Part shown: positions 8,256 through 53,476 of the stretch, in pieces | Numbering within the stretch: position 1 is the first letter of the stretch | Layout of the letters: each line of letters opens with the position of its first letter | Assembly: GCA_038999725.1 (NCBI GenBank) | Contig: JAWBWS010000004.1 | Span: 717-64,716 of the forward strand | DNA: 64,000 nt | Reading direction: 5' to 3' | From: Candidatus Aenigmatarchaeota archaeon | GTDB lineage: Archaea; Aenigmatarchaeota; Aenigmatarchaeia; CG10238-14; SCSR01 | The notes under the pieces: generated by a model | Seen by the model: only the letters and a program-made list of their open reading frames with translations | Told to the model about the DNA's origin: nothing | The model's database searches: none | Translations under genes and position numbers: made by a program

Positions 8256-9797
8256 TCATGTCAACCAATCTTTTAAACTCACTTTCTTTTTGCTCCTTTT
8301 CTTCATATCATACAAAATTCCCTTCATCTTCTTTTCTTTCTGGAAAGCAGCCCAGTAATATGATTCATCTCTTGTGTCCTTTGTCAAGAGAAAAATTACT
8401 TTCCCCTCACTTTGTCTTCCAACTCTTCCTTTTCTTTGTATATTTCTAATTTCACTTGGCACACTCTCGTAAAAAATGGCATAATCAGTAGCGACTATAT
8501 CCAAACCTTCCTCTCCTATGCTTGTTGTGACCAAAACATTAAATTCACCATCTCTAAACCTTCTTAAGACTTCAATTTGTTCTTGCTGCGTCATCCCTTT
8601 CTCTTCTTTGTTTGCCTGTCCTATTAATATCTCGGATTTTATTCCCTCCTTCTTCAGAGTTTCATTTATTTTTTCCACAGTAGCTCTGTAATTTGCGAAA
8701 ACTATAATTTTCGCCTTGGAATTTTCCCTCAATAAATCATTAATCAAAAATCTGAGTTTTGTAAGTTTAGGATGTTCTACTCCATTTTTTCTTATTTTTT
8801 CTATAAGTCTCAAAACCTCTTTCATTCTCACATCATTTGCAATCTTCTTGTCAACCCTTTTTTTACTTTTCATAAACTTTTGTAGGTAATCATAAAGAGA
8901 TGAAATTTCCTGTGTTTCAAGAAGTTCCATAGCATGCTCAATTTTTATCGCTTCAGCTAGCTTCATCATCGCCCAAGCAAGCGTGTAATTTTTCGAGCCT
9001 TGCATGTATTTAGCCGCAATAACATTCTGTAAATTGAGCAAGAGCTTTTTTGGTGGCCTGCTCGTGTTGAGGAAGCCGTGATCTTTAAGCCAAGCTATTG
9101 GCTCTTTCAGCATTTGCTCAAGCAAACCTTTAATCATTTTCATCTCTTCTGGCAAATCAACATAAATCCAGTCTTTGAATATAGGTTTCACATACACCTT
9201 AACATCTTCATCAGCTTCTGTTCTTATTTCAACAGCTTCTATGAAAAGATTTTCTTTTATTTCTTCAATTCTTTCAAAGCTACCGCCAGGAGAGGCTGTC
9301 AAGCCAAGAATTAAAGGGCGCTTTGCCTGTTCTTTATATTTCTTTGCAACAAAAGTGTAAGAATACTCTTTCACACAACGGTGGCATTCGTCGAAAACTG
9401 CCAAAGAAAAATTTTCCAAATTAATTCTTCCAGCCTCCAAATCATTCTCAATTGTTTGTGGTGTTGCAATTATCACCTTGCTTTTTTGGTAAATTTCACT
9501 CCTCTTTTCAGGTTTTATTTTTCCTGTAACGAGGGCAATTTCCTCTTCTTTCAAATCTGTAAACTTTTCAAAGCTTTTTTTATGTTGAGCATTTAAAGGT
9601 CTAGTTGGTGCCATCACCAATACCTTGCTTTCAGGAAAATCGTTAAGCCTTTTTATTGCAACAATCATAGCTATTAGAGTTTTCCCCATCCCAGTTGGTA
9701 ACACAACTAAAGTGTTTTTCTTACTTGCAGTTTCTGCTATATTTTTTTGATATTCTCTTGGTTCGATATCCTTTAAGCTTGTCATACTATTCTCCAA
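8256..9797 (-). CDS. hef: Hef/FANCM-family DEAH-box helicase (helicase module only)
   Basis: Walker A PTGMGKT, DECH box (AVFDECHRC), TASPG motif, inserted helical domain, and helicase C motifs (VTTSIGEEGLDI, QRKGRVGR). It lies immediately upstream of the separate ERCC4 nuclease gene. Confidence 0.8.
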   Translation of the reverse strand: MENSMTSLKDIEPREYQKNIAETASKKNTLVVLPTGMGKTLIAMIVAIKRLNDFPESKVLVMAPTRPLNAQHKKSFEKFTDLKEEEIALVTGKIKPEKRSEIYQKSKVIIATPQTIENDLEAGRINLENFSLAVFDECHRCVKEYSYTFVAKKYKEQAKRPLILGLTASPGGSFERIEEIKENLFIEAVEIRTEADEDVKVYVKPIFKDWIYVDLPEEMKMIKGLLEQMLKEPIAWLKDHGFLNTSRPPKKLLLNLQNVIAAKYMQGSKNYTLAWAMMKLAEAIKIEHAMELLETQEISSLYDYLQKFMKSKKRVDKKIANDVRMKEVLRLIEKIRKNGVEHPKLTKLRFLINDLLRENSKAKIIVFANYRATVEKINETLKKEGIKSEILIGQANKEEKGMTQQEQIEVLRRFRDGEFNVLVTTSIGEEGLDIVATDYAIFYESVPSEIRNIQRKGRVGRQSEGKVIFLLTKDTRDESYYWAAFQKEKKMKGILYDMKKRSKKKVSLKDWLT

Positions 9798-10238: not shown

Positions 10239-10919
10239 ATGAGAGTTGCTGTGTTGTTCAGTGGAGGGAAAGACTCAACTTATGCTACTTACCTTGCTAA
10301 AAAACAGGGCTATGAAATCAAGTATTTGGTCACAATAATTCCTCAAAGAGAAGACTCTTGGATGTTTCATTATCCTTGCATAAATTTAACAAAATTGCAA
10401 GCCAAGGCCCTTGGTATTAGGCAAATAACACAAAAAACAAAGGGTGAAAGGGGAAAAGAGCTTGAAGATTTAAAGAGAATTTTGGAAAAAATAAAAAATG
10501 ATATTGATGCTGTAATCTCTGGTGCTATTGCTAGCAACTATCAAAAATCAAGAATCGATGAAGTTTGCAAGGAGTTGGACATTAAGCATTTAACTCCACT
10601 TTGGCAGAAAGATCAAGAAGAAGTTTTGAAGGAAGAGTTGAATGCCGGTTTTGAAATTATGATAACAGGAGTTTTCTCAGAAGGTTTTGACGAAAGTTGG
10701 TTGGGAAGAAGAATTGATGAAGAAGTAGTAAAAGAGCTCTTGAAGCTCAAGAGGAGATTTGGAATTTATGTTAGTGGCGAGGGCGGTGAATATGAGACTA
10801 TTGTTTTAAATTGCCCTTTGTTCAAGAAGAGAATTGAAATTTCTAGCTTCAAGAAAATTTGGGACGAGAAGACAAAAAGTGGATACATTGTTGTTAAAAG
10901 GGTTAAACTTAAGAGTTGA
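10239..10919 (+). CDS. Diphthine–ammonia ligase-like PP-loop ATPase (Dph6/MJ0570 family)
   Basis: N-terminal PP-loop VAVLFSGGKDSTYA; ~225 aa, as in archaeal Dph6 homologs. Confidence 0.7.
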   Translation: MRVAVLFSGGKDSTYATYLAKKQGYEIKYLVTIIPQREDSWMFHYPCINLTKLQAKALGIRQITQKTKGERGKELEDLKRILEKIKNDIDAVISGAIASNYQKSRIDEVCKELDIKHLTPLWQKDQEEVLKEELNAGFEIMITGVFSEGFDESWLGRRIDEEVVKELLKLKRRFGIYVSGEGGEYETIVLNCPLFKKRIEISSFKKIWDEKTKSGYIVVKRVKLKS

Positions 10920-10956
10920 TTCAACTTTTTATTCTTCTTCACCATATCTTTATTTG

Positions 10957-12372
10957 ATGGTTAAACTCGTTTTTTATGGTGGGGTTAATGAAATAGGCGG
11001 AAACAAAATTTTGATTGAAGATGAAGAAACGAGAATATTTCTCGATTTTGGCATGAGTTTTGCTCAATCTTCCAAATATTTTTCAGAATTTTTACAACCT
11101 AGAGTTTGTTCTGGCTTGAGCGACTTGATAGAACTTGGGATAATTCCAGACTTGAAAGGAATTTACAGGAATGATTTACTTGCTCACGAAGGCAAACCTT
11201 TGACAGAAAAGCCAATGATAGATGCGGTTTTTCTCTCACACGCTCATGCTGATCATAGCTGGAATATATCTTTACTTCATCCAGAAATTCCAATTTTTTG
11301 CGGCGAAACCACAAAGCTCATGCTCAAAGCAGCTCAAGAAACTTCTCGAGGTTTATATTATGAAGATTTTTACATTTATCGGGAATGTTTTGTGGATAGA
11401 AGGAAAAAACCTGAAAAAGAGAGAAATTTCAAGACTTTTAGAACTGGAGACAAGATAAAAATTAAAGACATAGAAGTTGAGCCTATTCATGTCGATCACA
11501 GCATTCCTGGAGCTTACGGGTTTTTAGTCCACACATCATCTGGAACAATAGCTTATTCTGGTGACATAAGAATGCATGGCCCAAAGAAAGAGATGAGTGA
11601 AGATTTCATACAAGCAGCAAGAAAAGAAAGATCAGAAGCCCTCATCTTGGAAGGCACAAACATAGATAATCGAATGGTAAGTTTAACCGAGAATCAAGTC
11701 TTTAAAACTGTTACCAAACTAATTTCACAAACTAAGAAGCTTGTGCTTTGTGATTTTCCAATAAGGGATGTAGATAGACTCAAAACTTTTTTTGAAGCTG
11801 GAAGGAAAAATGGTAGAAAATTTGTTACAAACATGAAGCAAGCTTATTTGATAGAGCTTCTGAATAAAGAAGATAAAAAACTAGAGCTTCCTAGTTTGGA
11901 TGAATTCCAAATATTCCTTCATAAGAGCAGTTGGGGAAATTACGAAAAGCAAGACTACTACAAATGGCAGCAAAAATTTTTAGATTACCCAAATGTGATA
12001 AAAGCCGAAGATTTAGCAAAACAACAGGAAAAATTTGTCCTCTACATGGAGTTTTTTGATTTGACCGAACTTCTGGATATAAAACCATCAAATGGAAGCT
12101 TGTTTATTCATTCTTTAACAGAGCCTTTCAATGAAGAAATGGCTTTAGATTTCAATAAGATGTTGAACTGGTTGAACAAGTTTAAAATCCCATTTAAACA
12201 CGTCCACGCTTCCGGACATGCGGACATATCTCAACTCAAAAAAATTGCTGAAGGAATATCTCCAAAGAAAATTTTTCCAATTCACACGGAGAGGCCAGAT
12301 CTTTTCATCAACCTCACTAAAAAGGCTAAGGTTATTATACCAGAAGTTGGAAGGGGTATTGAGGTTTTTTAA
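10957..12372 (+). CDS. rnj: Beta-CASP metallo-beta-lactamase ribonuclease (archaeal RNase J-like)
   Basis: MVKLVFYGGVNEIGGNKILIE...DFGMSF N-terminus and the HAHADHS zinc-binding motif, with a beta-CASP region. The ORF-track start at 10834 is a spurious upstream extension; the conserved N-terminus begins at ATG 10957. Confidence 0.8.
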   Translation: MVKLVFYGGVNEIGGNKILIEDEETRIFLDFGMSFAQSSKYFSEFLQPRVCSGLSDLIELGIIPDLKGIYRNDLLAHEGKPLTEKPMIDAVFLSHAHADHSWNISLLHPEIPIFCGETTKLMLKAAQETSRGLYYEDFYIYRECFVDRRKKPEKERNFKTFRTGDKIKIKDIEVEPIHVDHSIPGAYGFLVHTSSGTIAYSGDIRMHGPKKEMSEDFIQAARKERSEALILEGTNIDNRMVSLTENQVFKTVTKLISQTKKLVLCDFPIRDVDRLKTFFEAGRKNGRKFVTNMKQAYLIELLNKEDKKLELPSLDEFQIFLHKSSWGNYEKQDYYKWQQKFLDYPNVIKAEDLAKQQEKFVLYMEFFDLTELLDIKPSNGSLFIHSLTEPFNEEMALDFNKMLNWLNKFKIPFKHVHASGHADISQLKKIAEGISPKKIFPIHTERPDLFINLTKKAKVIIPEVGRGIEVF

Positions 12373-13147: not shown

Positions 13148-13242
13148 GCCGAGGTCGCCTAACTGGTAGGGCACCGGTCTCGAAAACCGGCGGGCGCAAA
13201 ATTTTGCGTAAGCCCATGTGGGTTCAAATCCCACCCTCGGCG
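13148..13242 (+). tRNA. tRNA-Ser (anticodon CGA) with an unusually long (~27 nt) variable arm
   Basis: Acceptor GCCGAGG/CCTCGGC, 3-bp D-stem GCC/GGC, anticodon stem CCGGT/ACCGG, loop CTCGAAA, and T-arm GTGGG-TTCAAAT-CCCAC. The variable region CGGGCGCAAAATTTTGCGTAAGCCCAT forms a long hairpin. Confidence 0.8.
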
Positions 13243-13532
13243 CAATCAAATCTTTATATGCTTTTCGCTTTTTCTCCTTCTGACACCTTTTGGGATAAAG
13301 TTCAAAAAATAAGGAAGTTTTGTGAAAAGGAAAAATTGAATCAATACTGGCAAAAACTGAATGAAATTGCAGAAAAAGATAGGTTTTGTTGTTGATACAG
13401 CTAAAAACATCTTTGAACCCCAGAGATCTTACCATTTAATTTGTTGCCACAGCTTCTATTTCTACACCAGATTTAGTGGGATATGCAAAATCAAAGATAG
13501 AAGCATTGTATCAAATTAGTAAACGAAGCAAT

Positions 13533-41582: not shown

Positions 41583-41855
41583 TTAGCTTTTAAGATAGAG
41601 TTCTAGCAATCTTTTTATGTCAGATATTGGAAGTTTTATTTCAGATTTGGGTAAGAAGAAAGTTAAGTATTTGTTCTCATCTATTTTTGTCAGGTTATCG
41701 ATTGGGATTTTTTCTATTTTATAAATCAGTTTTAGCTCATCTTTGGTCAGAATATGTAAATCAACAAAAAGGTAAGAAGATTTGCTAGATGGGAAAATCG
41801 TGACACAAAATTTCTCATACTCTAAATAAGGTAAAATGGCATCTCTCTTTAACAT
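41583..41855 (-). CDS. Hypothetical small protein
   Basis: 90-aa ORF on the opposite strand between rps9 and the PGM/PMM gene. No motifs; low-complexity K/L-rich. Confidence 0.3.
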   Translation of the reverse strand: MLKRDAILPYLEYEKFCVTIFPSSKSSYLFVDLHILTKDELKLIYKIEKIPIDNLTKIDENKYLTFFLPKSEIKLPISDIKRLLELYLKS

Positions 41856-41997: not shown

Positions 41998-43374
41998 ATG
42001 GGATCTAAAAACAGTGAAAACATCTTCAGGCCAAATGACATCAGAGGTATATATGGTAGAGATTTAACGGAAGATGTAGCAGAAAAAATTGGCAAAGCTT
42101 TTGGAACTCTTTTGGGAGAGGGGAAAGTTGTGGCTGTGGGGAGAGATGTAAGACTAAGCAGTAAGAGCTTAAGAGATTCTCTAGTCAAGGGTTTAATTTC
42201 TACAGGCTGCAATGTTGTAGATATCGGTGTAGTAACCACACCCGCCTTTTACTTTTCCCTTTTTTTCTACAAGTTCGATGGTGGTATAATGATAACAGCT
42301 TCACACAATCCTCCAGAATGGAATGGTTTTCACATATACAGAGGAATAAACTCTTTGATTGTCGAAGAAGAAATCAACAAACTGAAAGAAATTATAGAGA
42401 AAGAAGAATTCAGAAAAGCCAAAAAGAAAGGTAAGGTTAGAAAGCATTATATTCTAAAAGATTACATAAGCTTCCTTTCTTCAAAAGTAAAGATTAAGAA
42501 AAAATTGAAGGTAGTTGTGGATTGCTCGAATGGTTGTGCAGCTTTGGTTATACCAAAGCTTCTCAAGAAGCTTGACCAAGAAGTTGTTGTGCTTAATGCT
42601 AAAATGGATGGTAAATTTCCTGCTCATGGACCAGATGTAAAGGAAGAAAACTTGAAAGAATTGAAAAAAATGGTTAAAGAAATTAAAGCAGATTTAGGGG
42701 TTTGTTATGATGGGGATGCTGATAGAGCAGCTTTTGTTGATGAAAGGGGTAGAGTTATACAAGGTGATAAGGCAGCTTTGATTATTTTGGAAGATGTGTT
42801 CAGGAGAAAGAAATCTCCAAGAATTTTAGATGATGTGAGTTGCTCTTCTGCTATAGAAGAATATATAAGAAGTAAAGGTGGTATCCTAAAAACAAGCAGG
42901 AGGGGTCACGCTTTTCTTCAACAAATAATGAGAAAAGAAAAAATTGATTTTGGTTTTGAAAAAAGTTCTCATTTTTATTTTTCAGAGCTAAGAGGTTTTG
43001 ACGACGCTGCTCTAGCAACTCTGAAAGTAGCCGAAGTCCTCTCAAGAAGCAAAAGAAGTTTTTCTCAAATCGTTAATTCTATTAACTGGCCTCCAAGCAA
43101 AGAAGAAACTTTGTATTGTGATGATGAAATTAAGCTTAAGGTCATTCAAAATGTGAAAAAAGAAATTCGCATACTTGGATTTAAAACTATTGAGCTAGAT
43201 GGGGTAAAAGCCTTCATGCAAGAAGGATGGTTTTTAGTAAGAGCTTCGATAACAGAGCCTGCCATAAGAATTACTGTTGAGGCAAAAGAAGAAAAAGCAT
43301 TAAAGGAAATTTTAAGCTTCACAAAGAAGCTTGTGAAGAAAGAAATAAATATATGTTCAGCTAAGGTAAAATGA
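41998..43374 (+). CDS. Phosphoglucomutase/phosphomannomutase (archaeal PGM/PMM family)
   Basis: Active-site Ser loop [12 protein letters not shown], metal-binding DGDADR, and sugar-binding GFEKSSH motifs. Confidence 0.85.
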
Positions 43375-43384
43375 AGGGAAGTTT

Positions 43385-43579
43385 ATGATAATCCCTGTTA
43401 GGTGCTTTACCTGTGGCAAGCCTATTGGACACTTATGGGAAGAATATAAAAAAAGGGTAGGGATGGGAGAGGATTCAGGAAAAGTATTGGATAGCCTAGG
43501 GTTAAAGCGTTACTGCTGCAGGCAGGTATTTTTGGGTACAGTAGAGCTACTTAGAGAGGTGGAGGAATTCAAACCATAA
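43385..43579 (+). CDS. rpoN: DNA-directed RNA polymerase subunit N (Rpb10)
   Basis: [15 protein letters not shown]...YCCRQ zinc bundle; 64 aa. Confidence 0.9.
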
Positions 43580-43630
43580 TATTTTTAACACTAAATTCAA
43601 AAAATATTTACATACTGGTGGTAAAAAATT

Positions 43631-43909
43631 TTGAAAGATGATGGGATGATATGGCCTGCTGACAGGTTGACGAGATTCGAGTTTGCAAGGATACTTGGCG
43701 CCAGAGCTTTGCAAATTTCTCTAGGTGCACCAATTTTGGTTAAAACTGATGCAACTGATCCAATTGAAATAGCAAAAATAGAATTTAAAGAAAAAATGAT
43801 TCCAATAACTGTGAAAAGAAGGTTGCCCAATGGGGAAGAAATGGTAATAAACATCAAAAAAGCAATGGAAAACTGGATTGCGGAGCATGGGGAAGAAGAT
43901 TTAATTTAG
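43631..43909 (+). CDS. rpoK: DNA-directed RNA polymerase subunit K (Rpb6)
   Basis: [25 protein letters not shown] is the conserved Rpb6/omega core. Confidence 0.85.
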
Positions 43910-45406
43910 ATACATCTTGTAAATTTTTTCTACCTGATTGTCTGAAATGAAAAAAGAAAAATCTTGTGAAAGGTTTGGGTCTTTTTTGCTAATATGAAGG
44001 AGAAGTACAATCTCCTTCTTCAAATCTTCTGACATTTTCTCAAATTTCTCTCTTTCTACAGGAGGTACAACCTCAGAGTAAATGTGGGGATACTTTTCAG
44101 CATGAATTGAGGCAAAATCTGGATCACACCATTTTTTGTAATTATCGTATTTCTTAAAGTAAGGGCTCAAGCCCCTAACAGAAGGTCTCATATATGATGA
44201 ACCTGAAGATGCGTGTAAGCTCAATGGACAACCAACAGCACATTTTTTGGAACTTAAAACATCAACCAATATTTTGTAATTCCTTCCCCACTCATTTTCT
44301 CTTTCAATTGAGAACCTTTTCCTAATTTTTTCTTCCATTTCTCTTACAACATGCACAACTATAGCTTTTCCCAATATTCTGAGATTTCCATAAGCATTTA
44401 TTAGCTTTTCATCTTCTATATCCATCGAATTCAAGATTTTTTCATAAGTTTCTGTTGGCTTTTTTAAACCACCTGTCCATATGTGAAGGCTTCTGTTTCC
44501 AGAAAAATGAACATAACCTTTTATCCCATAGCTATTTAAGAAATTTAAAATTTGAGAAATTACTTCAAAAGAAAGAGCATATGCCTTTTGTAGGTCTATT
44601 ATTTTTAACATATCTCCAATATCAGTCTCTATAACAAAAATTGAAGGAAAATCGTCTTCCTTCTTGTCAACTGAAGTATAAATTTGTATCATGTTATATT
44701 CTCTCACATATTTTTCAAAATCTTCAGGGCTTTCTGGCGGTGGCAAAAGTTCCTTTCTATATTTAAGCCACATCCTCATTTTTGGCTTTTCACATCCTTT
44801 GGCCCATTTTATCCTCACATATCTATCCCTACAAAAATTTTTTATGACTTCTTGGACTATGGGCTTAGAGTAATATTTCAATAACTTTTCTTTGTCGACC
44901 CTCATGTCAAAAGCTGAAAATCTTTCAGTTTCTGGTAGTGGTGAATCGTAAACCACTTTTCTTGTACCATCTGTATCAAAAACAATTCTCAATCTATTCT
45001 CAACATTCCAGCCCCAGTCTTCTGGAAGTAAAATAGCGAAAATTTCAGTCATTATGTTTTTCTTGAATCTATCTAAACCTCCTCTGTAAGAACTTGTGAA
45101 AGAAACTGGTAAAAATGAATAGTTCTCATCTGCTTCGAATGAAACTTTCAGTGGAATCTCTTGTCTTCCAGGCTTGTTTTTTCTACCAAAGAAATAAGGT
45201 ATAAAAATTTTATACAAGCTCTCCCTTATTTTGTTCATATTCTCTATATTTTTTCTCTCAAAAGCTGCACAAAATTCAATCGTGTAATTAACTTTATTCC
45301 TGAATTTTTTCTCCTGCCAAAACTCGTCAATTTTGTTGTAGAGGAGAGAAGTTAATTCTTGTAAGTTAAAACATTTTCCAGGCTCTTTTTTAAACCTTGG
45401 TCTCAA
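43901..45406 (-). CDS. Divergent archaeo-eukaryotic primase (AEP) superfamily protein (PrimPol/PriS-like) with long N-terminal extension
   Basis: Motif I hhhDhD: [11 protein letters not shown]. Motif II: [13 protein letters not shown] (S-G-x-R-x-x-H). Candidate motif III: [18 protein letters not shown] (compare R-h-P-G-S-x-H-x-K-S-G). 501 aa, with the first ~250 aa unassignable. Confidence 0.55.
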
Positions 45407-45420
45407 CCTTGTCTTCCCCT

Positions 45421-47712
45421 TTATTTTTGCATGTATTTAGTCAGTTTGTTATCTTTGGATGAATACTCTAACCTTAAGAGAGGTGAGAGAGGTTTAAGCC
45501 TCTCCATCAAATATTCTATGTAAACGTTTATATCAATTTTACCTTTAGGTTTTTCTGAGAAATCTATTCCACTGGTAGTTACAAAAAATTCAATGAAATT
45601 GCCTGGCTTCTTACCCGATTCCTCATATGCCCTTCTCAACAAATCTAGTCTGAAACTTCTTTTTTCATACTTATCTAAACTTTTGCTCAACCTTCCCACT
45701 ATTTTGTAGTCCTCCAGGTTTTCTAAACTTTCTATTCTTTTTAGCTGTTTTTGTAACTCTCTTCTTGCTTCATTCAAACCATATTTCACAAACTTTTCTA
45801 CAATTTCATTTACCGCCTCTCTTACAATTTTTGGATCCATCCTGCTTGTTCCTCTCCATCCTATTTTAACTATTTTTCCACTTTCTGTTGCTATAGCTTG
45901 TTTTTTATTCAAAGGAATGAAAACATCTTCGTGCTTATTATAATCTGTTATTAAGAAAGGATATTCCCTCTTTAACTTTTCAATAGCATTTATTGTTTTT
46001 TCAGCTTCACCTGAAATAAAACCCCTACATCTTAATGGAGACAAATAAACAATTTCACATTCTCCCAGCTTCTTTGTTTCAGTAAGCCTCTTGTAAATTT
46101 CAGAAAATTTTTTATAAATTTTTTCTGAAATTTCTTCATTTGTGAAAATTTTTCTCCCAAAAAGTAAGTGTGAGCTTATAGAGTTTATCGCAAAAGAATA
46201 AACATCAAAAACTCTGTTCCTACCTTTTTCATCAACACCAAAAGCATCTGGGCCTCCCTTTATCCTAAAAATTTTTTCAAATAAATTTAAGTAAGGTCTA
46301 AACTCTTCTTCATCCTCTACTATCTGTGGTACAAAAGCAAAAGAAGGATAAATCCACCTTCCTTTAATTCTTTGGCCATATTTTTCTGTTAAAATTCTAT
46401 CATACTTATCAACAATTCTCTCTTTCTTTCTTGCTAATTTTGTGGACTCATTTCTCATTTTTGGAAAAATTTTACCTTGAACAAATTCTGAAGTTAAAAT
46501 AGCTTCACCTATTTCTTCCATAGTTTTTTTGAAAACAGTCTCAATATCGATTGAAAAAAACATGGGTAAAACCAATAGTTCTTGGTCAAACAATAGAAAC
46601 TCGGCAAGCTTCAAATGAGCGACAGCATCTTGAAAATTATGAGTTACTGTTTCTTCTACTTCTTTTTTGAGTTTATACAAATCTTCTGCATTTTTTATCT
46701 TGAGATAAATTTTAAACTTCCTGTAGTCAGTTTTCTTAAGTGTCTCTTTATCATTAAGAAAATGCCCTAAGAAATCTTCAAGACTTCTTATCGTGGGGCG
46801 CTCATGTTTAGAGATGTATAAAGAATCGGTAGAAGGTGTTATGCCTTCTGATGTTACAACTTGAATTGCTTGAACTGGTTTAAAATAAATTGGAATGTCA
46901 AATTTGTCCTCAGGCCTTTCTTTTGTTGAAGGAAACTCTTCATAATCTTTCTGTTTTTCAAGAAGAGAAGAGCCATGAACCATTTCTATATCTGCTCCTC
47001 TCCTGTACTCGTAAATTTTTTTTATCAAACTTTTTTCATCTGGCACAAGTTCAATCTCATATCCCCCCAAGATTTTCTTGAACTCTTCTAGAAGCCCAGA
47101 ATTTTCGTTAACTATCAAGACTTTTGAGAGCCCATCACTCCTCATTAAAGTAGCTAAAACTATTTGGTCGCCATAAGTTTCGTAATCAACTGTAAATAAA
47201 ACCAATTTCTTTCTCAATTTTTCAATTTGGTTTGTTGCTTCTTTTCTGGTTTTTGGTTTCTCTTGTTGAATAATTAATTTTCCTTCTTCCCCAACAAGCA
47301 CTCTTGTGTCCAAAAAATATCCAAACTCTGTAGAAAAGTTACTCTCTTCCAATTTAGAAAGCCAATACTCTTGTTTCCTTGAATTTGAAATATTTTCTTC
47401 AACCCCAATAACACCGTCTATTACTTTAAGCTTTAATTTTATCTCTTCATTTTCAGAAGGTAGAGAAATGAGGGAAGCTTTATAAACCTTGTCTCCAATG
47501 TATGTAACATCGTCTACAATATTAAATTGATTAACACCAAGCTTCCTTATTTCCTTCAGCACTTTCTCCTTTTTTTCAGGTCTTATAAAAACTCTTGTTC
47601 TTTTTTTCAGTTTTTCTTCTACCAAAACATCTTGCCCGTTTTTGTAATATTGGTAAACATTTCCCCCTCTTATTACAAGGCCAACCGGTCCAACAAGTTC
47701 TGAAATTTTCAT
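45421..47712 (-). CDS. Family-B DNA polymerase homolog with degenerate exonuclease and polymerase motifs (likely inactivated PolB paralog)
   Basis: PolB-like N-terminal region VIRGGNVYQYYKNGQDVLVEE...RVFI. Exo I: LVLFTVDYETYG (DxE kept). Exo II-like: KVLIVNENSGL. Motif A-like: RVFDVYSFAINSIS (D kept, SLYPS lost). Motif C region FLITDYNKHEDVF instead of YxDTDS. KxY/RRDW region KKQAIATESGKIVKIGWRGTS (compare [26 protein letters not shown]). 763 aa. Confidence 0.5.
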   Translation of the reverse strand: MKISELVGPVGLVIRGGNVYQYYKNGQDVLVEEKLKKRTRVFIRPEKKEKVLKEIRKLGVNQFNIVDDVTYIGDKVYKASLISLPSENEEIKLKLKVIDGVIGVEENISNSRKQEYWLSKLEESNFSTEFGYFLDTRVLVGEEGKLIIQQEKPKTRKEATNQIEKLRKKLVLFTVDYETYGDQIVLATLMRSDGLSKVLIVNENSGLLEEFKKILGGYEIELVPDEKSLIKKIYEYRRGADIEMVHGSSLLEKQKDYEEFPSTKERPEDKFDIPIYFKPVQAIQVVTSEGITPSTDSLYISKHERPTIRSLEDFLGHFLNDKETLKKTDYRKFKIYLKIKNAEDLYKLKKEVEETVTHNFQDAVAHLKLAEFLLFDQELLVLPMFFSIDIETVFKKTMEEIGEAILTSEFVQGKIFPKMRNESTKLARKKERIVDKYDRILTEKYGQRIKGRWIYPSFAFVPQIVEDEEEFRPYLNLFEKIFRIKGGPDAFGVDEKGRNRVFDVYSFAINSISSHLLFGRKIFTNEEISEKIYKKFSEIYKRLTETKKLGECEIVYLSPLRCRGFISGEAEKTINAIEKLKREYPFLITDYNKHEDVFIPLNKKQAIATESGKIVKIGWRGTSRMDPKIVREAVNEIVEKFVKYGLNEARRELQKQLKRIESLENLEDYKIVGRLSKSLDKYEKRSFRLDLLRRAYEESGKKPGNFIEFFVTTSGIDFSEKPKGKIDINVYIEYLMERLKPLSPLLRLEYSSKDNKLTKYMQK

Positions 47713-47758
47713 AAATTTATGAAAAAAGCTTAAATATTTAAGTTCTATCTGATTCTTT

Positions 47759-49771
47759 ATGTTTGTTCATAACTTCTTATCAAGCACAAGAGTTGTAAGA
47801 ACACTTCAAGAAATAGACCCAGAGTATGTGGAAATTATTCCATATGAAATTTTTAAAGAAGGTTATGAAAGAGAGTTAAGTTTAAGAATTTTAAGTTTTC
47901 TGAAAGAAAATCTTCAAGTGAGAAGCACAAAAGCCAATTTTCTTCGTAATTTAAGAGAAAATATGGTTGAATTTAAAGACGATGGTTCGAAATATTTTTT
48001 GTATGTGGAAAACTCTTTTCCTCAATCTTTATATTACGAAGAAATTAATGGTAGAGTTCAACCCAGAAAAAATATAGCTGGGTTTATCCCTAAAACAAAT
48101 AGGGATTTTGGCTCCTCTATTAACCCCGCCTTGAGTATTTTCCCAAAAATTCTGAATTCTTATAATGTGAATTGTTTATTGATTTCTGTTACCCCTCTCG
48201 GTCTAATACCATATGAAATTAAAACCTTAGAACCACTTGTAAAAGTAGAGCCTTTTTCCATACCAAATATATTTGATTACTCAGAAGTGGAAAGAAGCCT
48301 AAGGTATTCGAAACTCCGTGCAGAATTAATGGGTAAAACTCCACCTAAAGATTTTAACTTAGATGCCTTAGCCTTTTCTTTTCATTATAATAAAAAACTG
48401 AAACCAATATACTGGAGGGACATCGAGAAAAAATGTAGCAAAATTATGTTAAAAGATTTCACATATATTTCAAATGAATTTATAAAGAATAACACAAACC
48501 ACAAAGCAATACTTTGTTTGTCACAAAAACCTCACTTGAAAAACTTGAGAGAAATTCTCAAACGATTTGGGTTGTATGATGAAGAATTTGACTTGACAAA
48601 AAAACTCTTGGAAAGAAAGCCTGGTGATGAAGAGTATATGATGTGGGGGATATCATCACCTTATTTTACAGGCCAATATTCTCTGGACATCAACAATGTA
48701 AGAAGGTACCACATGGGAATGTTAGAAAGAATAATCAGGAAAAAAATAAACAGCGAGAAAATTGAAGTGGTTTATGGTACCACATTAACAGGTGAGAGGT
48801 TAAAAGACAAAAAGCTACTCAAATTCTTCGAAAATTGGCTTGACACGGATATAGACTCTATAACTACAGTTTATGCTACTCCAGTCCCATGTAAAAAAGG
48901 TAGCATCGTTCGAGAATATAATGACGAAGAGTTTTGCAGCAAGGAAGAATATATTAAATGGAGAGAAAGACAGAAAGAATCGGATATTTGGAGATTAGAA
49001 GAATATGTGGATGAAAGTGGAATACAGCCTTGGACTGGTATAATTCAATTAATTCAATCGAAAATTGAAGAAGAACTCTATCCACCCAAATTGATGATAA
49101 GAGAAATAAATTTAGAAAGTTCGGATTATCATTTTAGCTATTTAACCAGAACCCCCGTGGAAAATATTTTAAAAGATGATATAGATGAAGAAATAAAAAA
49201 TAAGAGAATAATCACAAAATCTGGAAAGGGGGGAACAATAGAAGAGTTTGGAAAAATTGGCAGCCTTATTCACGATTGTAGAAGATATTGTTCCATAAGC
49301 TGTCATGATTTTACAAAATTCACCGAAGTTCCTCTGGAGTTAAATGTCTCCTATGGGGGGTATAAATACAAAATTTCTGGAATAAGTGACATAATCCTGG
49401 AGACAGGAAAAGGCAAACTCCATGTATGTAACACAAAGTTAGAGGCAAGCTATTTCCCACCACGAGGCCAAAGAATGCAAGTTCTTGCAGAAGCTCTTGC
49501 CGCTATGCAATTGTTTAAAAAAGAGTTAGATAGTGTAAGTTTGTACTATCACACAAGTGTTTTAAGGGAGGGCATTCTTTTTGTGTTTTTCCCAACCCAA
49601 GAACAACAGCAAAAAATTCTCAATGAAATTGGAAAAGAGGTGTACGATTACTTTCAGATGAAGGAAAATCCCAAACTGATACCAGAATATTTTTCAAAAT
49701 ATAAAAGATGGATGAAAGATCCTGAGCTTGTTAAAAAAATTATAGAAAAAAGATTAAATATAACCTTTTAA
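47759..49771 (+). CDS. Large (670 aa) protein of unknown function, divergently transcribed from the PolB-like/AEP operon
   Basis: Clean 670-aa ORF with a Cys/His cluster (HDCRRYCSISCHDF...HVCNTK) and a Gly-rich KSGKGGTIEEFGKIG segment. No family recognisable by eye. Confidence 0.5.
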   Translation: MFVHNFLSSTRVVRTLQEIDPEYVEIIPYEIFKEGYERELSLRILSFLKENLQVRSTKANFLRNLRENMVEFKDDGSKYFLYVENSFPQSLYYEEINGRVQPRKNIAGFIPKTNRDFGSSINPALSIFPKILNSYNVNCLLISVTPLGLIPYEIKTLEPLVKVEPFSIPNIFDYSEVERSLRYSKLRAELMGKTPPKDFNLDALAFSFHYNKKLKPIYWRDIEKKCSKIMLKDFTYISNEFIKNNTNHKAILCLSQKPHLKNLREILKRFGLYDEEFDLTKKLLERKPGDEEYMMWGISSPYFTGQYSLDINNVRRYHMGMLERIIRKKINSEKIEVVYGTTLTGERLKDKKLLKFFENWLDTDIDSITTVYATPVPCKKGSIVREYNDEEFCSKEEYIKWRERQKESDIWRLEEYVDESGIQPWTGIIQLIQSKIEEELYPPKLMIREINLESSDYHFSYLTRTPVENILKDDIDEEIKNKRIITKSGKGGTIEEFGKIGSLIHDCRRYCSISCHDFTKFTEVPLELNVSYGGYKYKISGISDIILETGKGKLHVCNTKLEASYFPPRGQRMQVLAEALAAMQLFKKELDSVSLYYHTSVLREGILFVFFPTQEQQQKILNEIGKEVYDYFQMKENPKLIPEYFSKYKRWMKDPELVKKIIEKRLNITF

Positions 49772-51445
49772 TCACATTTTTTCCAAAGCTTTTATTCCAA
49801 GAAGTTCAAGGACCTTATTCAAAACAATTTTTGTTGCCTTCACAAGAGTAAGCCTGAAGTTCCTCTTCTCTTTCGTCTCAGCCTTGAGAACAGGATTTGT
49901 CTCATAAAATCTTCCAAAAATCGTGGCAAGTTCGTAAGCGTAGTTGCAAATGTAGTGTGGTTTTAAATCTCTTCCAGCTTCTTCCACAACCTTCTTAAAT
50001 CTTGCTAATGTTCTTATCAGTTCTTTTTCTCCTTCTGTTAGTTCTTTTGTTTTGAACAGTAACTTAAACTTTCCAGCTCTTCTCAATATTCCCACACATC
50101 TTGTATGAGCATATTGCAAGTATGGTCCTGTATCGCCTTCTAGCCTAAGCATTTGGTTCCAATCAAAAGTTATGGTCTTTTCAGGCTCAATTCTTACAAT
50201 AGCATACTTCAAAGCTCCTATTCCCACAGCCTCGGCAATTTCCTTCTTTTCTTTTTCGGAGAGGTTGGTCCTCCTCTTCTCAATTTCCTTCAAGGCGGTT
50301 TCCACAAGCTTGTCTACAACTTCATCAAGCATTAAAGCTTTACCCTCTCTGGATGACATTTTTCCTTCAGGTAAGTGAACAAGCTCAAAAGCAAAATGTT
50401 TGCAACCACTAACCCACTTGTAGCCAAATAACTCCAAGAGCTTGAAAAGTTGTTTAAAATGAAGGTTTTGCTCGGTTGCAACAACCCATATGTGACTGTC
50501 AAGCTTGTACTTTTCAAACCTTTTAACAGTCATACCCAAATCACTTGTTATGTACAAGCCGGTGCCATCCGACCTTAACAAAACTGTATCAGGTAAGCCA
50601 AACTTCTCTAGCCTAGACAAGACTGCACCATCTTCCATTTTAGTCATAATTCCTCTCTTCAACCCTTCTTCAATTAGTTTCTTTCCAAGCTCTCTGAACT
50701 CACTCTCATAAAAATAAACGTCAAAGTTTATTCCCAACCGATGATAGGTTTCTTCAAACCCCTTAACACACCACCCAACTATTTTCTTCCATATTCTTCT
50801 TATCTTTTTGTCTTTTTCCAATTCAAACTTCCTCAAAATTTCTCTTGCCTTTTCTTCTAGACTGGGATTAGTTTTGGCTTCTTCATGAAACTTAACATAA
50901 AGTTTCCAAAGCCAAGCATCAGGCTTTCCTTCTGGTTCCTTTCCTTCTGCCCAAAGCAAGTAGGCTGTGACGAGTTTAGCAACTTGAAGGCCAATATCAT
51001 TCATCAAGTTAGCTCTTATCACTTTATACCCCAAAAACTCCAAAATCCTTGCAAGTGAATCACCAAGGAAAGTGCCTCTTGCATGCCCTATGTGCATGGA
51101 ATGCACAGGATTTGGCTGAGAAAACTCAATCATCACTTTCTTCCTTTTCCTTGAAATTCCTTTTTTCATCACTTCCTTCAAGACAAGTTCTGAAACTTTC
51201 TGGTAATCCAGAAAGAAATTTAAGTAGCCCGATCTTGCCTCAACCTTTGAAATTAAAGACCCTTTTGGGATTTTTATCTTTTTTACCAGATTTTCAGCTA
51301 TTTCATTTGGGTTTCTTTTTTCTTTTTTAGCTAGATCGAAACAAGGAAAAGCTATATCACCGAATTCTTTTACCTTTGGGACTTCCAGTTTTAATTCTTC
51401 TATTCCTGCTTTTTTCAAAATTGCTTCTATTTCTCTTTCAATCAT
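49772..51445 (-). CDS. argS: Arginyl-tRNA synthetase
   Basis: Class I HIGH motif (PNPVHSMHIGHARGTFLGD), a C-terminal DALR-like anticodon-binding domain, ~557 aa. Confidence 0.85.
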   Translation of the reverse strand: MIEREIEAILKKAGIEELKLEVPKVKEFGDIAFPCFDLAKKEKRNPNEIAENLVKKIKIPKGSLISKVEARSGYLNFFLDYQKVSELVLKEVMKKGISRKRKKVMIEFSQPNPVHSMHIGHARGTFLGDSLARILEFLGYKVIRANLMNDIGLQVAKLVTAYLLWAEGKEPEGKPDAWLWKLYVKFHEEAKTNPSLEEKAREILRKFELEKDKKIRRIWKKIVGWCVKGFEETYHRLGINFDVYFYESEFRELGKKLIEEGLKRGIMTKMEDGAVLSRLEKFGLPDTVLLRSDGTGLYITSDLGMTVKRFEKYKLDSHIWVVATEQNLHFKQLFKLLELFGYKWVSGCKHFAFELVHLPEGKMSSREGKALMLDEVVDKLVETALKEIEKRRTNLSEKEKKEIAEAVGIGALKYAIVRIEPEKTITFDWNQMLRLEGDTGPYLQYAHTRCVGILRRAGKFKLLFKTKELTEGEKELIRTLARFKKVVEEAGRDLKPHYICNYAYELATIFGRFYETNPVLKAETKEKRNFRLTLVKATKIVLNKVLELLGIKALEKM

Positions 51446-51700
51446 ATAATCAAATTGTTCAAATAAAAATAAAATTCTTCAAAAGGTTTAAAGCTCTGTC
51501 ATTCTGATATTTTACCCTGGTTTTATAAATCCGGTTTTTGTGCAAAAAAATATTTTTTAATGGTTAAGCCAATTCTCGCCATATTTTTTTCTTTCCTTTT
51601 TTACCAATAAAGTAGCTTTTTTAGATGGGCTTTTTAGGAGATTGTAAGAAAAATTTAAAAGAGAAGAAATGAACAATTGCAGTAAAACAGGAGTCAAAGT

Positions 51701-53476
51701 ATGTGTGGTATAATAGGCTACATAGGAAGAGAAAATGCACCACCAGCGATTTTAGATGGACTAAGACATTTGGAGTACAGAGGGTACGACTCTGTTGGAG
51801 TTGCTTTTGTTTCTCCCAAAGAAGTCATCATAAAAAAAGATAAAGGTATGGTGGAAGAAGTTCATAAGAAACTAAATTTTTTGGATCCAGCTGTAAATTT
51901 GGCTGTTGCACATACAAGATGGGCTACACATGGAAAAATTTCAAAAGAAAATGCTCACCCTCACACAGATTGCAAATCAAACATAGCAATAGTTCACAAT
52001 GGCATAATAGAGAATTATAAAGAGTTGAGAGAAAGATTGATACTTTCTGGTCATGTCTTCAAGAGTGAAACTGATAGTGAAGTTATAGCCCATTTAATAG
52101 AGGAAGAATTGAAAAATCGTGAAAATTTTGAAGAGGCTTGTTGTGCTGCATTCAACAAATTAGAAGGAAGCTTTGCGGTTTTAGTTGTTAAAAAAGGGGA
52201 GAATAAAATTGTTGCTATTAAGAAAGGTTCACCTTTAGTTATTGGAATTGCTGATCATGGTTATTTTGCTGCAAGTGATATACCAGCTTTTATCGAACAC
52301 ACTAACCAAGTTGTTTATCTTTCAGATTGGGATATGGCTGTTCTAGATTCTACTCCAATTTTCTTTAACATCAAAGATGGGATGCTAACAAGAGTTGAAA
52401 AACCCATACATATAATTGACTGGAATGCAGAGAAAACCAAAAAAGGTGGGTTTGAGCATTTCATGCTTAAAGAAATTTGTGAGCAAGCTGAAACTATAGA
52501 AAGAGTTGTTGCTCAAGAGAAAGAGGTTGTTAAAAAAATTGTGGATGAAATTGAAAAAGCATATGGTGTATTTTTTATTGGGTGTGGCTCAAGTTATCAT
52601 GCTTGTCTGGTAGCAAGTTATATATTCTCAAAAATTGCTAAAAAGCATGTGAATGTAGTTCTTGCATCAGAATTTCCAAATTATGAGCATTTTTTAACAA
52701 AAGATACTCTTGTCATTGCAGTTTCCCAATCTGGCGAAACTTACGATGTTCTAGAAGCTGTTAGAGCTGCTAAAAGGAAGGGAAGTAAAATAATTTCAAT
52801 AGTTAATGTGATGGGATCGAGTTTGACAAGGGAGTCTGACTCCTTCTTACTCATGCATGCTGGTCCTGAGATTGGTGTTGCGTCAACGAAAACTTATACT
52901 TCAGAAATAGCACTTTTAACACTTCTAGCTTACTCTTTGATTGGAAAATTTGAAGAAGGTAAGGAAAGGGTGAAAAGTCTTAGGAATGTTATCTCTTATT
53001 TCACTTCAGAAACTTCAAGAAATAAAATAAAAGAGTTAGCAGAAAAATTGAAAGATAAAGAACATATCTTTTGTATCGGGAGGGGAACACAATATGCCAC
53101 TGCTTTGGAAGCTGCATTGAAAATAAAGGAAGTTTCTTATATTCATGCTGAGGCCTTGGCCGGTGGAGAGTTGAAGCATGGAACTATTGCCCTAATTGAA
53201 AATAATACTCCATGTATAGTTTTTATTTCGGAAGAAAATGAAAAAGAGATTCTTTCAAATGCTATGGAAATAAAGTCTAGGGGTGGGTATATAATTGGCG
53301 TGTCTCCAAAAAATAATGAAATATTCGATTATTGGATAAAAGTTCCTGAAGCAAATACAGAAAATCCGATTGTTCAAATCATCCCAATGCAAATTTTGGC
53401 TTATTACTTGGCTGTTTTGAGAGGACACAACCCAGACCGTCCTAGAAATCTTGCGAAAAGTGTGACAGTAAAATGA
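51701..53476 (+). CDS. glmS: Glutamine–fructose-6-phosphate aminotransferase (isomerising)
   Basis: N-terminal nucleophile MCGIIGYIG and two SIS domains (SQSGETYD, C-terminal ...VSPKNN). Confidence 0.9.
   Translation: MCGIIGYIGRENAPPAILDGLRHLEYRGYDSVGVAFVSPKEVIIKKDKGMVEEVHKKLNFLDPAVNLAVAHTRWATHGKISKENAHPHTDCKSNIAIVHNGIIENYKELRERLILSGHVFKSETDSEVIAHLIEEELKNRENFEEACCAAFNKLEGSFAVLVVKKGENKIVAIKKGSPLVIGIADHGYFAASDIPAFIEHTNQVVYLSDWDMAVLDSTPIFFNIKDGMLTRVEKPIHIIDWNAEKTKKGGFEHFMLKEICEQAETIERVVAQEKEVVKKIVDEIEKAYGVFFIGCGSSYHACLVASYIFSKIAKKHVNVVLASEFPNYEHFLTKDTLVIAVSQSGETYDVLEAVRAAKRKGSKIISIVNVMGSSLTRESDSFLLMHAGPEIGVASTKTYTSEIALLTLLAYSLIGKFEEGKERVKSLRNVISYFTSETSRNKIKELAEKLKDKEHIFCIGRGTQYATALEAALKIKEVSYIHAEALAGGELKHGTIALIENNTPCIVFISEENEKEILSNAMEIKSRGGYIIGVSPKNNEIFDYWIKVPEANTENPIVQIIPMQILAYYLAVLRGHNPDRPRNLAKSVTVK

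Follow-up and report, generated by a model that had tools for sequence, protein, structure and literature searches.

Inactivated relatives of the family B DNA polymerases (PolB) are known, among them PolB2, the C-terminal half of Pol epsilon and the poxvirus protein F12, and in these either both active sites have been lost or the protein plays a structural role. The locus analyzed here encodes a PolB relative for which a different history is predicted, with the polymerase site lost and the exonuclease site retained. It lies in a 64,000-nucleotide stretch of DNA (hereafter, the window) from Candidatus Aenigmatarchaeota archaeon (GenBank assembly GCA_038999725.1, contig JAWBWS010000004.1, positions 717 to 64,716 of the forward strand) and comprises three genes at window positions 43901-49771, which encode a 763-residue PolB-like protein, a 501-residue protein of the archaeo-eukaryotic primase (AEP) type and a divergently transcribed 670-residue partner carrying a putative nuclease domain. 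The 'inactivated' archaeal PolBs described so far are the PolB2/Dpo2 proteins (Rogozin et al. 2008, PMC2527604; Makarova et al. 2014, PMC4104785). A PolB survey (PMC7544198), in which no description of the present family was found, reports that the replicases of the Aenigmatarchaeota include a B6 PolB bearing a C-terminal Zn domain and lack DP2.

The 763-residue protein (45421-47712, minus strand) is, on the evidence of profile alignments, a true full-length PolB homolog with a dead polymerase site. Its homology was assessed by comparing the PolB-like family, using hhalign, with five canonical PolBs, namely P0022 minus its intein, a Methanomethylovorans plasmid PolB and three Pol II enzymes. 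The two alignments matched with Prob 95.6 and P 1.3e-8 over 602 columns (residues 77-742 and 87-772, respectively). Searched against the Protein Data Bank (PDB), the family profile matched Thermococcales PolB at E 8.4e-6, through the palm/thumb region and at collinear positions, and among 1.84 billion representative proteins it matched P0022, a genuine PolB bearing an intein, at E 4.5e-4. The similarity is collinear over the full length of the protein and takes in the N-terminal, exonuclease, palm, fingers and thumb regions, so that the family-B layout assigned to this protein in the original prediction is borne out by both the hhalign comparison and the PDB profile search. Standard profile libraries do not recover this relationship. 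A Pfam scan of the module proteins returned nothing at E <= 1 for DNA_pol_B, DNA_pol_B_exo1 or DNA_primase_S, and scans of the three proteins against Pfam, NCBIfam, PHROGs and PADLOC returned sub-threshold matches only. A viral contig scan for PolB references yielded no match.

Within this conserved framework, the residues of the polymerase site have been replaced. The aspartate of motif A (DxxSLYPS) aligns to a variable position, 444, occupied by K, E, D, N, R or G in different members, and the SLYPS segment is deleted; the motif-A aspartate that had been thought to be retained is therefore not a conserved feature of the family. Another string, 'DSLY' (D296), was considered as a candidate motif A and rejected, as it is located in the stretch separating Exo II from Exo III and aligns to the 'GRxxxDLYP' ('DLYP') motif of the exonuclease domain. 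Motif B (KxxxNSxYG) has become F507-A-I-N-S/C, with an invariant Phe at the Lys position. In place of the YGDTDS of motif C, HMMER and hhalign both align a degenerate Y556-L-S558-P559-L-R-C562 (46027-46047, minus strand), in which residue 558 varies between S and N and residue 562 among C, S, R and G, and Asp is found in no member. The losses of SLYPS, KxxxNSxYG and DTD that had been read from the window sequence thus hold in the profile alignments, and a catalytic polymerase Asp is kept by no member of the family. Given the loss of motifs A, B and C, the protein is best regarded as a PolB derivative that would no longer be able to polymerize. The region closest to real PolBs is the KxY/thumb segment, which grips the primer-template and reads NKKQAIATESGKIVKIGWRG in the window. 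At the extreme C-terminus, a pattern [ND]xx[LI]TxY[MF] is conserved in the close clade of the family and is represented in the window by D754-N-K-L-T-K-Y-M761 (45430-45453, minus strand). The canonical PolBs that were fetched for comparison terminate in the clamp-binding motifs 'QLGLF', 'QKSLF' and 'QSGLGRF', and the segment D754-M761 is a possible PCNA-interacting motif, similar to a PCNA-interacting peptide (PIP) box.

The exonuclease domain presents the opposite picture. Exo I is represented by D176-Y-E178 in the context 'TVDYET' (47179-47187, minus strand), which aligns with 'SIDIET' and 'FDLEV' of the canonical PolBs, and D176 and E178 are invariant in all 11 sequences available at this position; the DYE motif noticed beforehand is therefore a genuine counterpart of the canonical DIE/DLE. 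Exo II and Exo III had been thought to have lost their acidic residues, and the alignments contradict this. Exo III is H358-N-F-Q-D362 (46627-46641, minus strand), aligned to 'YNLKD' and 'YALKD' of canonical PolBs, where D362 is the Exo III Asp and H358 stands in for the Tyr; the motif takes the form Hx3D instead of Yx3D, and both residues are invariant (10/10). In the Exo II region, E252-K-Q-K-D256 (46945-46959, minus strand), MAFFT and hhalign both place the Exo II Asp at Q254, and acidic residues flank that position at a distance of two on either side: D256 is invariant (10/10) and position 252 is E or D. The distant clade of the family reads 'FKFDYL' at D256, which makes a register shift of two residues at Exo II likely. 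Altogether, no variation is seen at D176, E178, D256, H358 or D362 among the 10 full-length members, which are drawn from two clades that are ~28% identical, and over the same divergence the former polymerase-site positions drift. We therefore predict that a DEDD-type 3'-5' exonuclease site has been kept, with His substituting for the Exo III Tyr, and its conservation is the reason why this PolB relative is not best read as a purely structural protein.

The partner gene (47759-49771, plus strand) encodes a protein with a helical N-terminus, an alpha/beta region at ~120-330, a poorly modelled Cys-containing linker at 333-393, a further helical region and a C-terminal PD-(D/E)xK domain; its AlphaFold2 (AF2) model has a mean predicted local distance difference test (pLDDT) score of 69.6. 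Judging by sequence matches and by this model, the C-terminal domain (49205-49771, plus strand) is a nuclease of the Cas4/RecB/EXO5 type. Sequence matches include PADLOC Cas4_II (E 1.6e-4), TIGR00372 (E 0.0057, 16.5 bits against a cut-off of 65) and PDB 9iab (E 0.15). A separate list of matches contains AdnAB nuclease domains, human EXO5, the Cas4 protein SSO0001, Cas4-Cas1, Dna2 and a DinG helicase-nuclease chain (9kqh), with RecE (7.9), MGME1 (7.5) and lambda exonuclease (5.9) following lower down. Against viral models (BFVD), the matches were overwhelmingly PD-(D/E)xK or Cas4-like nucleases with partial cover, and no full-length viral match was found. Motif residues E523, D544, (D)558-T-K560, Q574 and Y597 are conserved in the family, whose homologs in the distant clade are recovered at E 1e-80 and 1e-49; a Pfam scan of all family members gave nothing consistent. 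In the window protein itself, codon 558 (49430-49432) encodes Asn (HVCNTK), compared with Asp in all 9 other members covering the position. The same N558 is found in the NCBI metagenome-assembled genome (MAG) and in an independent Logan assembly, and hence the substitution is real and not an assembly error. A Cys/His cluster had been attributed to this protein, and it does lie in or next to the PD-(D/E)xK domain, but the Cas4-type four-Cys cluster (C-terminal CxxC...C) is lacking and just C511 and C557 are conserved. An Fe-S or Zn cluster was accordingly considered and rejected, given the absence of a C-terminal Cys and the lack of conservation of C557 in the distant clade.

The 501-residue protein (43901-45406, minus strand) can be divided into an N-terminal region (~1-170), a core resembling the polymerase domain (PolDom) of LigD and non-homologous end joining (NHEJ) systems (~171-414) and a helical C-terminal tail. 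The predicted catalytic core (44165-44896, minus strand) comprises motif I, E260-T-D262, motif II, S302-G-N-R-S-L-H308, and motif III, D382, followed by 'PLSLHASSG'. Five bona fide LigD PolDoms fetched from plasmids were used as references, and hhalign matched them to the AEP family with P 2.1e-7 and Prob 93.6 over residues 171-414, and to the window-clade AEPs alone with P 4.2e-5. The Pfam model LigD_Prim-Pol (PF21686) matches the window protein at E 0.0062 (16.6 bits against a gathering cut-off of 27.4) and the best family member at E 3.6e-6, and no PriS profile in Pfam or NCBIfam matched the protein. Four of the five PDB matches of the family profile at E <= 10 are AEPs (5dmu, 1zt2, 2iru, 2fao), and motifs I and II fall in register with theirs. 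The match to Sso PriS (1zt2), in which a 12-residue segment pairs with IRIPNSLHGKSG, is weak (E 0.42). When the distant-clade AEP homolog was searched alone, all three PDB matches were LigD PolDoms, and the match covered the motif III segment 'RFTIE...R..FLDYLRNS', which has a counterpart in the window protein. E260/D262 and D382 are present in all six aligned AEPs and H308 in five of them, the protein of metagenomic locus L017 having Arg at this position. Motifs I-III are thus as real as had been supposed, being in register with LigD PolDom and PriS, and the protein is, as far as these alignments go, a divergent AEP closest to the LigD/NHEJ PolDom and not a canonical PriS, in line with its initial description as a primase-polymerase. 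The region ahead of the core, previously given as 250 residues, measures ~170, since the hhalign core begins at 171. The window-clade AEP profile has no HMMER match to the distant-clade AEPs, and hhalign links them only with P 0.007, so that orthology between the clades rests mainly on synteny and on the shared PolDom similarity. An AF2 model of the AEP was also searched against PDB with Foldseek, and this approach was set aside, as the poor model gave no useful fold matches.

The three ORFs (open reading frames) have the coordinates and strands originally assigned to them, and both of the spacers described between them can be read in the sequence. The PolB-like stop and the AEP start (TTG) are separated by 14 nt (45407-45420, minus strand; coding strand AGGGGAAGACAAGG), making co-transcription probable, and short gaps in the same arrangement also occur in four related loci (L006-L008 and L022). 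The divergent PolB-like and partner genes share a 46-bp promoter region (47713-47758), within which lies a 12-bp palindrome, TTAAATATTTAA (47730-47741), whose center is 23.5 nt from each start codon. Both the length of the 46-bp spacer and the palindrome TTAAATATTTAA are invariant in five loci (window, L001, L004, L006, L012), the proteins of which are just 42-60% identical. The simplest reading of the palindrome is that of a single shared bidirectional TATA box serving two leaderless mRNAs, as would agree with the general organization of archaeal promoters; one TATA box shared by the two genes would imply tight co-regulation. As had been noted, the module stands directly after rpoK: rpoN and rpoK adjoin it immediately upstream on the AEP side, with a 9-nt overlap between the 3' end of rpoK and the AEP gene, and the arginyl-tRNA synthetase (ArgRS) gene lies on the other side. 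No other 5871-nt segment of the window has a GC content as low as that of the module (0.324, compared with a window mean of 0.352). In GenBank, both the 763- and the 501-residue proteins carry the product name 'hypothetical protein', and the exact 670-residue sequence of the window was not among the named matches.

The distribution of the module is narrow and its position is fixed. In a set of 5.8 billion proteins, the PolB-like family amounts to 8 clusters. When 1.84 billion representatives were searched exhaustively with the profile, 6 matches resulted, one of them the genuine intein-bearing PolB. It occurs in only five GTDB species genomes, all five of them MAGs of Aenigmatarchaeota with isolate names beginning 'JZ-'. 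In the close clade, the gene order is ArgRS, 670-like (minus strand), PolB-like (plus strand), AEP or nothing, rpoK, rpoN, phosphoglucomutase ... S9, and two metagenomic loci (L015 and L017), representing a clade that is 24-29% identical, carry the whole set. In these two loci, the 670-like and PolB-like genes are followed by a small ORF in opposite orientation and by an AEP gene of 515-522 codons, and in L017 then by rpoK-rpoN-S9. The divergent PolB-like/670 pair is present in every locus spanning the ArgRS-rpoK site and is the constant core of the module, which confirms the notion of a conserved module with its core pair at one chromosomal site in all relatives, including the clade that is ~28% identical. 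The occurrence of the same gene set at the same site in the distant clade indicates that the module is old and has been vertically inherited. Roughly half of the lineages have the AEP gene, namely the window, L006-L008, L022 and the distant clade, and it is absent from several sister species (L001-L005 and L018-L021). Divergence within the module is roughly twice as fast as that of flanking rpoK and ArgRS. In close-clade loci carrying the respective genes, identity to the window is 49-57% for the PolB-like protein and 43-55% for the 670-like protein, compared with 83-85% for rpoK (69% in L022) and 73-82% for ArgRS. All ORFs nevertheless remain intact despite diverging faster than their neighbors, which points to purifying selection on a non-core function.

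Two further observations concern these loci. The small ORFs between the PolB-like and AEP genes of the distant clade (L015 4616-4876, minus strand, 86 residues; L017 4017-4400, minus strand, 127 residues) begin alike ('LY+I..+I.Y.LG'), have no Pfam match and have no counterpart in the window. A second 670-like protein, P0016 (QW040_04130), is encoded on a ~5-kb contig of the same MAG and is 44% identical; contigs with the identical P0016 protein (L011, L013, L014) carry a 774-residue PolB-like gene and an ArgRS 73-75% identical to that of the window. P0016 was examined as a possible paralog and dismissed, as an ArgRS of only 73-75% identity identifies these contigs as the corresponding, orthologous locus from a different species, and P0016 probably occurs in the same MAG through a mixed or contaminated bin.

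The identification of the 670-residue partner as a Cas4/RecB-like nuclease protein shifts the interpretation of the locus toward DNA end processing or repair. In the reading that we favor, and to which we give about an even chance of being correct on present sequence evidence, the genes form a lineage-specific, vertically inherited DNA end-processing or gap-repair module of a small hot-spring clade of Aenigmatarchaeota; a module that is neither a mobile element nor the replicative polymerase and primase of the cell is the best explanation of the data. The PolB-like protein would bind 3' primer ends, probably on PCNA, and trim them, the Cas4-like 670-residue protein would resect or cut 5' strands or flaps, and the AEP, where present, would fill the resulting gaps or extend ends. 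What the sequences show directly is the homologies, the states of the motifs, the synteny, the conserved promoter and the distribution. The activities of the proteins, their assembly into a complex, the binding of PCNA and a role in repair are what we infer, and several observations speak against them. The N558 nuclease of the window may be inactive or altered in this organism, and the N-terminal two-thirds of the 670-residue protein is without assigned function, as are the N-terminal 170 residues of the AEP, the AF2 model of which (4 sequences) is poor (pLDDT 50). The register of Exo II is ambiguous by two residues, and His is an unusual residue to find in an Exo III motif of the Yx3D type. 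Since several species lack the AEP, the core function cannot depend on it. A defense system, or a system derived from a mobile element, would also be compatible with the low GC and the rapid evolution. Finally, neither Ku nor a ligase nor other repair genes are found in the vicinity of the module, within 10 kb on either side or among the scanned large ORFs of the window.

Among the alternatives, the original prediction had raised a complex of a structural PolB with a PrimPol. The part that stands is a polymerase-dead PolB encoded beside an AEP; given the kept exonuclease site, a purely structural PolB is not the favored reading, and the absence of the AEP from several species makes an obligatory PolB/PrimPol complex unlikely. 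A related and more elaborate possibility is a composite enzyme in which the AEP would provide synthesis, the PolB-derived protein would bind the primer end, serve as a PCNA tether and proofread in trans, and the Cas4-like protein would process 5' ends. Such an enzyme strikes us as improbable, yet it would be a repair or replication polymerase of a kind not known before, in which a PolB has handed polymerization over to an unrelated polymerase, and in concept it would resemble the inactivated PolB module of Pol epsilon. The PolB-like protein could instead be a non-catalytic structural or regulatory subunit of the replisome, a scaffold comparable to PolB2/Dpo2 or to the C-terminal half of Pol epsilon that bridges PCNA or the helicase with other factors, its exonuclease residues binding metal or DNA only. 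The conserved inactivated PolBs of archaea and eukaryotes offer a precedent (PMC2527604, PMC4104785, PMC2669801), and the loss of every polymerase motif, the unusual replicase set of the Aenigmatarchaeota (PMC7544198) and the D558N substitution in the nuclease of the window are all consistent with it. We nonetheless consider a scaffold doubtful: the five exonuclease-site residues are invariant over deep divergence as the polymerase-site positions drift, the reverse of PolB2, in which Exo I is lost, the nuclease motif is complete in the 9 other members of the partner family that cover the site, and the module evolves much faster than its core replication and transcription neighbors.

That same rapid evolution relative to the neighbors, together with the lowest GC in the window, a Cas4-like nuclease, a component (the AEP) that is present or absent among species and a narrow taxonomic range, would suit an anti-virus or anti-plasmid defense system, in which the nuclease pair, with or without the AEP, recognizes invading DNA and degrades or abortively copies it. 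Such a role appears unlikely in view of the fixed syntenic place of the module among housekeeping genes in every genome, in contrast to a variable defense island, and of the core pair, which is never missing at the site in the recovered loci. In addition, no PADLOC family was matched beyond the generic Cas4 domain, no cas genes lie within 10 kb of the module, and a repeat search of 42500-52000 revealed no array. The domesticated remnant of a self-replicating element had also been put forward. As a rival to a functional module, the remnant would be that of a casposon-, pipolin- or virus-like element, decaying or domesticated and devoid of a present cellular function. A PolB, an AEP and a nuclease are a typical replication gene set of mobile elements, and the GC of the module relative to the window mean and the fast divergence of its genes concur. 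Descent from a mobile element is a possible origin and, if ancient, is compatible with the end-processing reading as well, but no evidence of mobility is left. Integrase, Cas1 and terminal inverted repeats are absent from the flanks of the module, just as first reported, and so are direct repeats and a neighboring tRNA gene that could have served as a target; the single tRNA of the window (13148-13243) is not beside the module. The insertion site is one and the same in all genomes, the ORFs are intact across clades ~28% identical, with catalytic-type residues and the promoter palindrome invariant, and the viral structure set gives no relatives beyond a generic nuclease fold. A remnant without function is, on balance, very unlikely. 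The possibility that these genes simply encode the canonical active PolB and PriS of the organism, with motifs overlooked by eye, has in its favor only the overall PolB and AEP homology, and can be considered effectively refuted: motifs A, B and C are absent in profile alignments, the corresponding Pfam families (DNA_pol_B, DNA_pol_B_exo1, DNA_primase_S) fail to match, the family is confined to a handful of genomes, and the AEP is nearest to LigD PolDom and missing in sister species.

Elsewhere in the window, genes were noted for a topoisomerase (Topoisom_bac, Toprim and Zn ribbon; 2786-4867, minus strand), a DEAD/ResIII-type helicase (8256-9797, minus strand) and a beta-CASP/RMMBL nuclease-type protein (10834-12372, plus strand). 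Neither a canonical PolB nor PolD nor a primase was found among the ten other large window ORFs scanned. The interval between S9 and phosphoglucomutase is a variable spot. Relatives carry a gene with LAGLIDADG_2 and HTH_3 domains there (L001 14422-16517, L006 8349-9385), L001-L003 also have an MFS (major facilitator superfamily) transporter gene, and the window has only a 90-residue ORF (41583-41855, minus strand) with no family match.

Compared with described systems, each of the three proteins resembles a known family and departs from it in specific ways. The AEP shares with LigD/NHEJ PolDoms (5dmu, 2iru, 2fao; PF21686) motif I (D/E)xD, motif II SGxxxxH and motif III 'RFxIE...R...DxL(R/S)(N/S)S', but has no ligase or phosphoesterase fusion and no nearby Ku, possesses an extra 170-residue N-terminal domain and an 85-residue C-terminal tail, and is linked to a PolB-derived protein instead. 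No Ku, ATP-dependent ligase or phosphoesterase gene was found within 10 kb on either side of the module or among the other large window ORFs scanned, and the locus thus lacks, over that range, the components that characterize a Ku-LigD NHEJ system. The 670-residue family displays the fold and the E, D, (D/E)xK and QxxxY motifs of Cas4/RecB-family PD-(D/E)xK nucleases. Relative to Cas4, RecB, EXO5 and Dna2, the window protein is distinguished by the lack of a four-Cys Fe-S cluster and of cas genes within 10 kb, by the position of the domain behind ~480 residues of uncharacterised domains and by D558N; with neither the four-Cys Fe-S cluster nor a cas1/cas2 or array context, it does not have the attributes of a CRISPR-associated Cas4. 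Casposons and pipolins also combine a PolB-family gene with nuclease-type genes, but they encode an active PolB, Cas1 or an integrase, have terminal repeats or target-site duplications and occupy variable sites, none of which applies to this module; the earlier judgment that it is not an obvious casposon or pipolin is reinforced by its identical ArgRS-rpoK position in all loci.

The best sequence matches of the PolB-like protein are Thermococcales PolBs (4ahc, 4flt, 2jgu), with which it is collinear (763 versus ~775 residues) and has in common the Exo I motif, an Exo III-like motif, a 'GFxPxxxxxLxEER'-like segment, the KKxYA...GK..rG...RRDW region and the thumb. It differs from them in the absence of motifs A, B and C, in the presence of Q or H at the KxY Tyr and of His at the Exo III Tyr, and in an overall identity of ~19% in the hhalign alignment. 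With PolB2/Dpo2 it shares its nature as a full-length PolB homolog with a disrupted YGDTD, an archaeal chromosomal location, conserved partner genes and a suspected role in repair or in the regulation of replication. PolB2, however, has lost Exo I and Exo III and kept the distal motif-C Asp, whereas the PolB-like family keeps Exo I, the Exo III Asp and D256 and has no motif-A or motif-C Asp. The partners of PolB2 are arCOG07300 and an inactivated RadA, as opposed to a Cas4-like nuclease protein and an AEP, and PolB2 is widespread, whereas the present family is confined to a small number of Aenigmatarchaeota and has diverged beyond the reach of Pfam. The features by which PolB2/Dpo2 members are recognized (absence of Exo I, a motif-C Asp and an operon with arCOG07300 and RadA) are thus not those of the PolB-like protein. 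Being invisible to Pfam and unannotated in GenBank, the family appears to be missing from current PolB classifications (PMC7544198). If its exonuclease is active, it would represent the re-use of a PolB scaffold as a dedicated 3'-end processing enzyme, a new way of building a DNA end-repair machine in the reduced-genome DPANN archaea and a tractable model for the exaptation of polymerase paralogs. Set against the inactivated PolBs known to date, the family shows the reverse pattern, with the polymerase motifs erased and the predicted exonuclease site frozen over deep divergence, in a gene tied by what appears to be a shared promoter to that of a RecB/Cas4-type nuclease protein and often to that of a LigD-like primase-polymerase.

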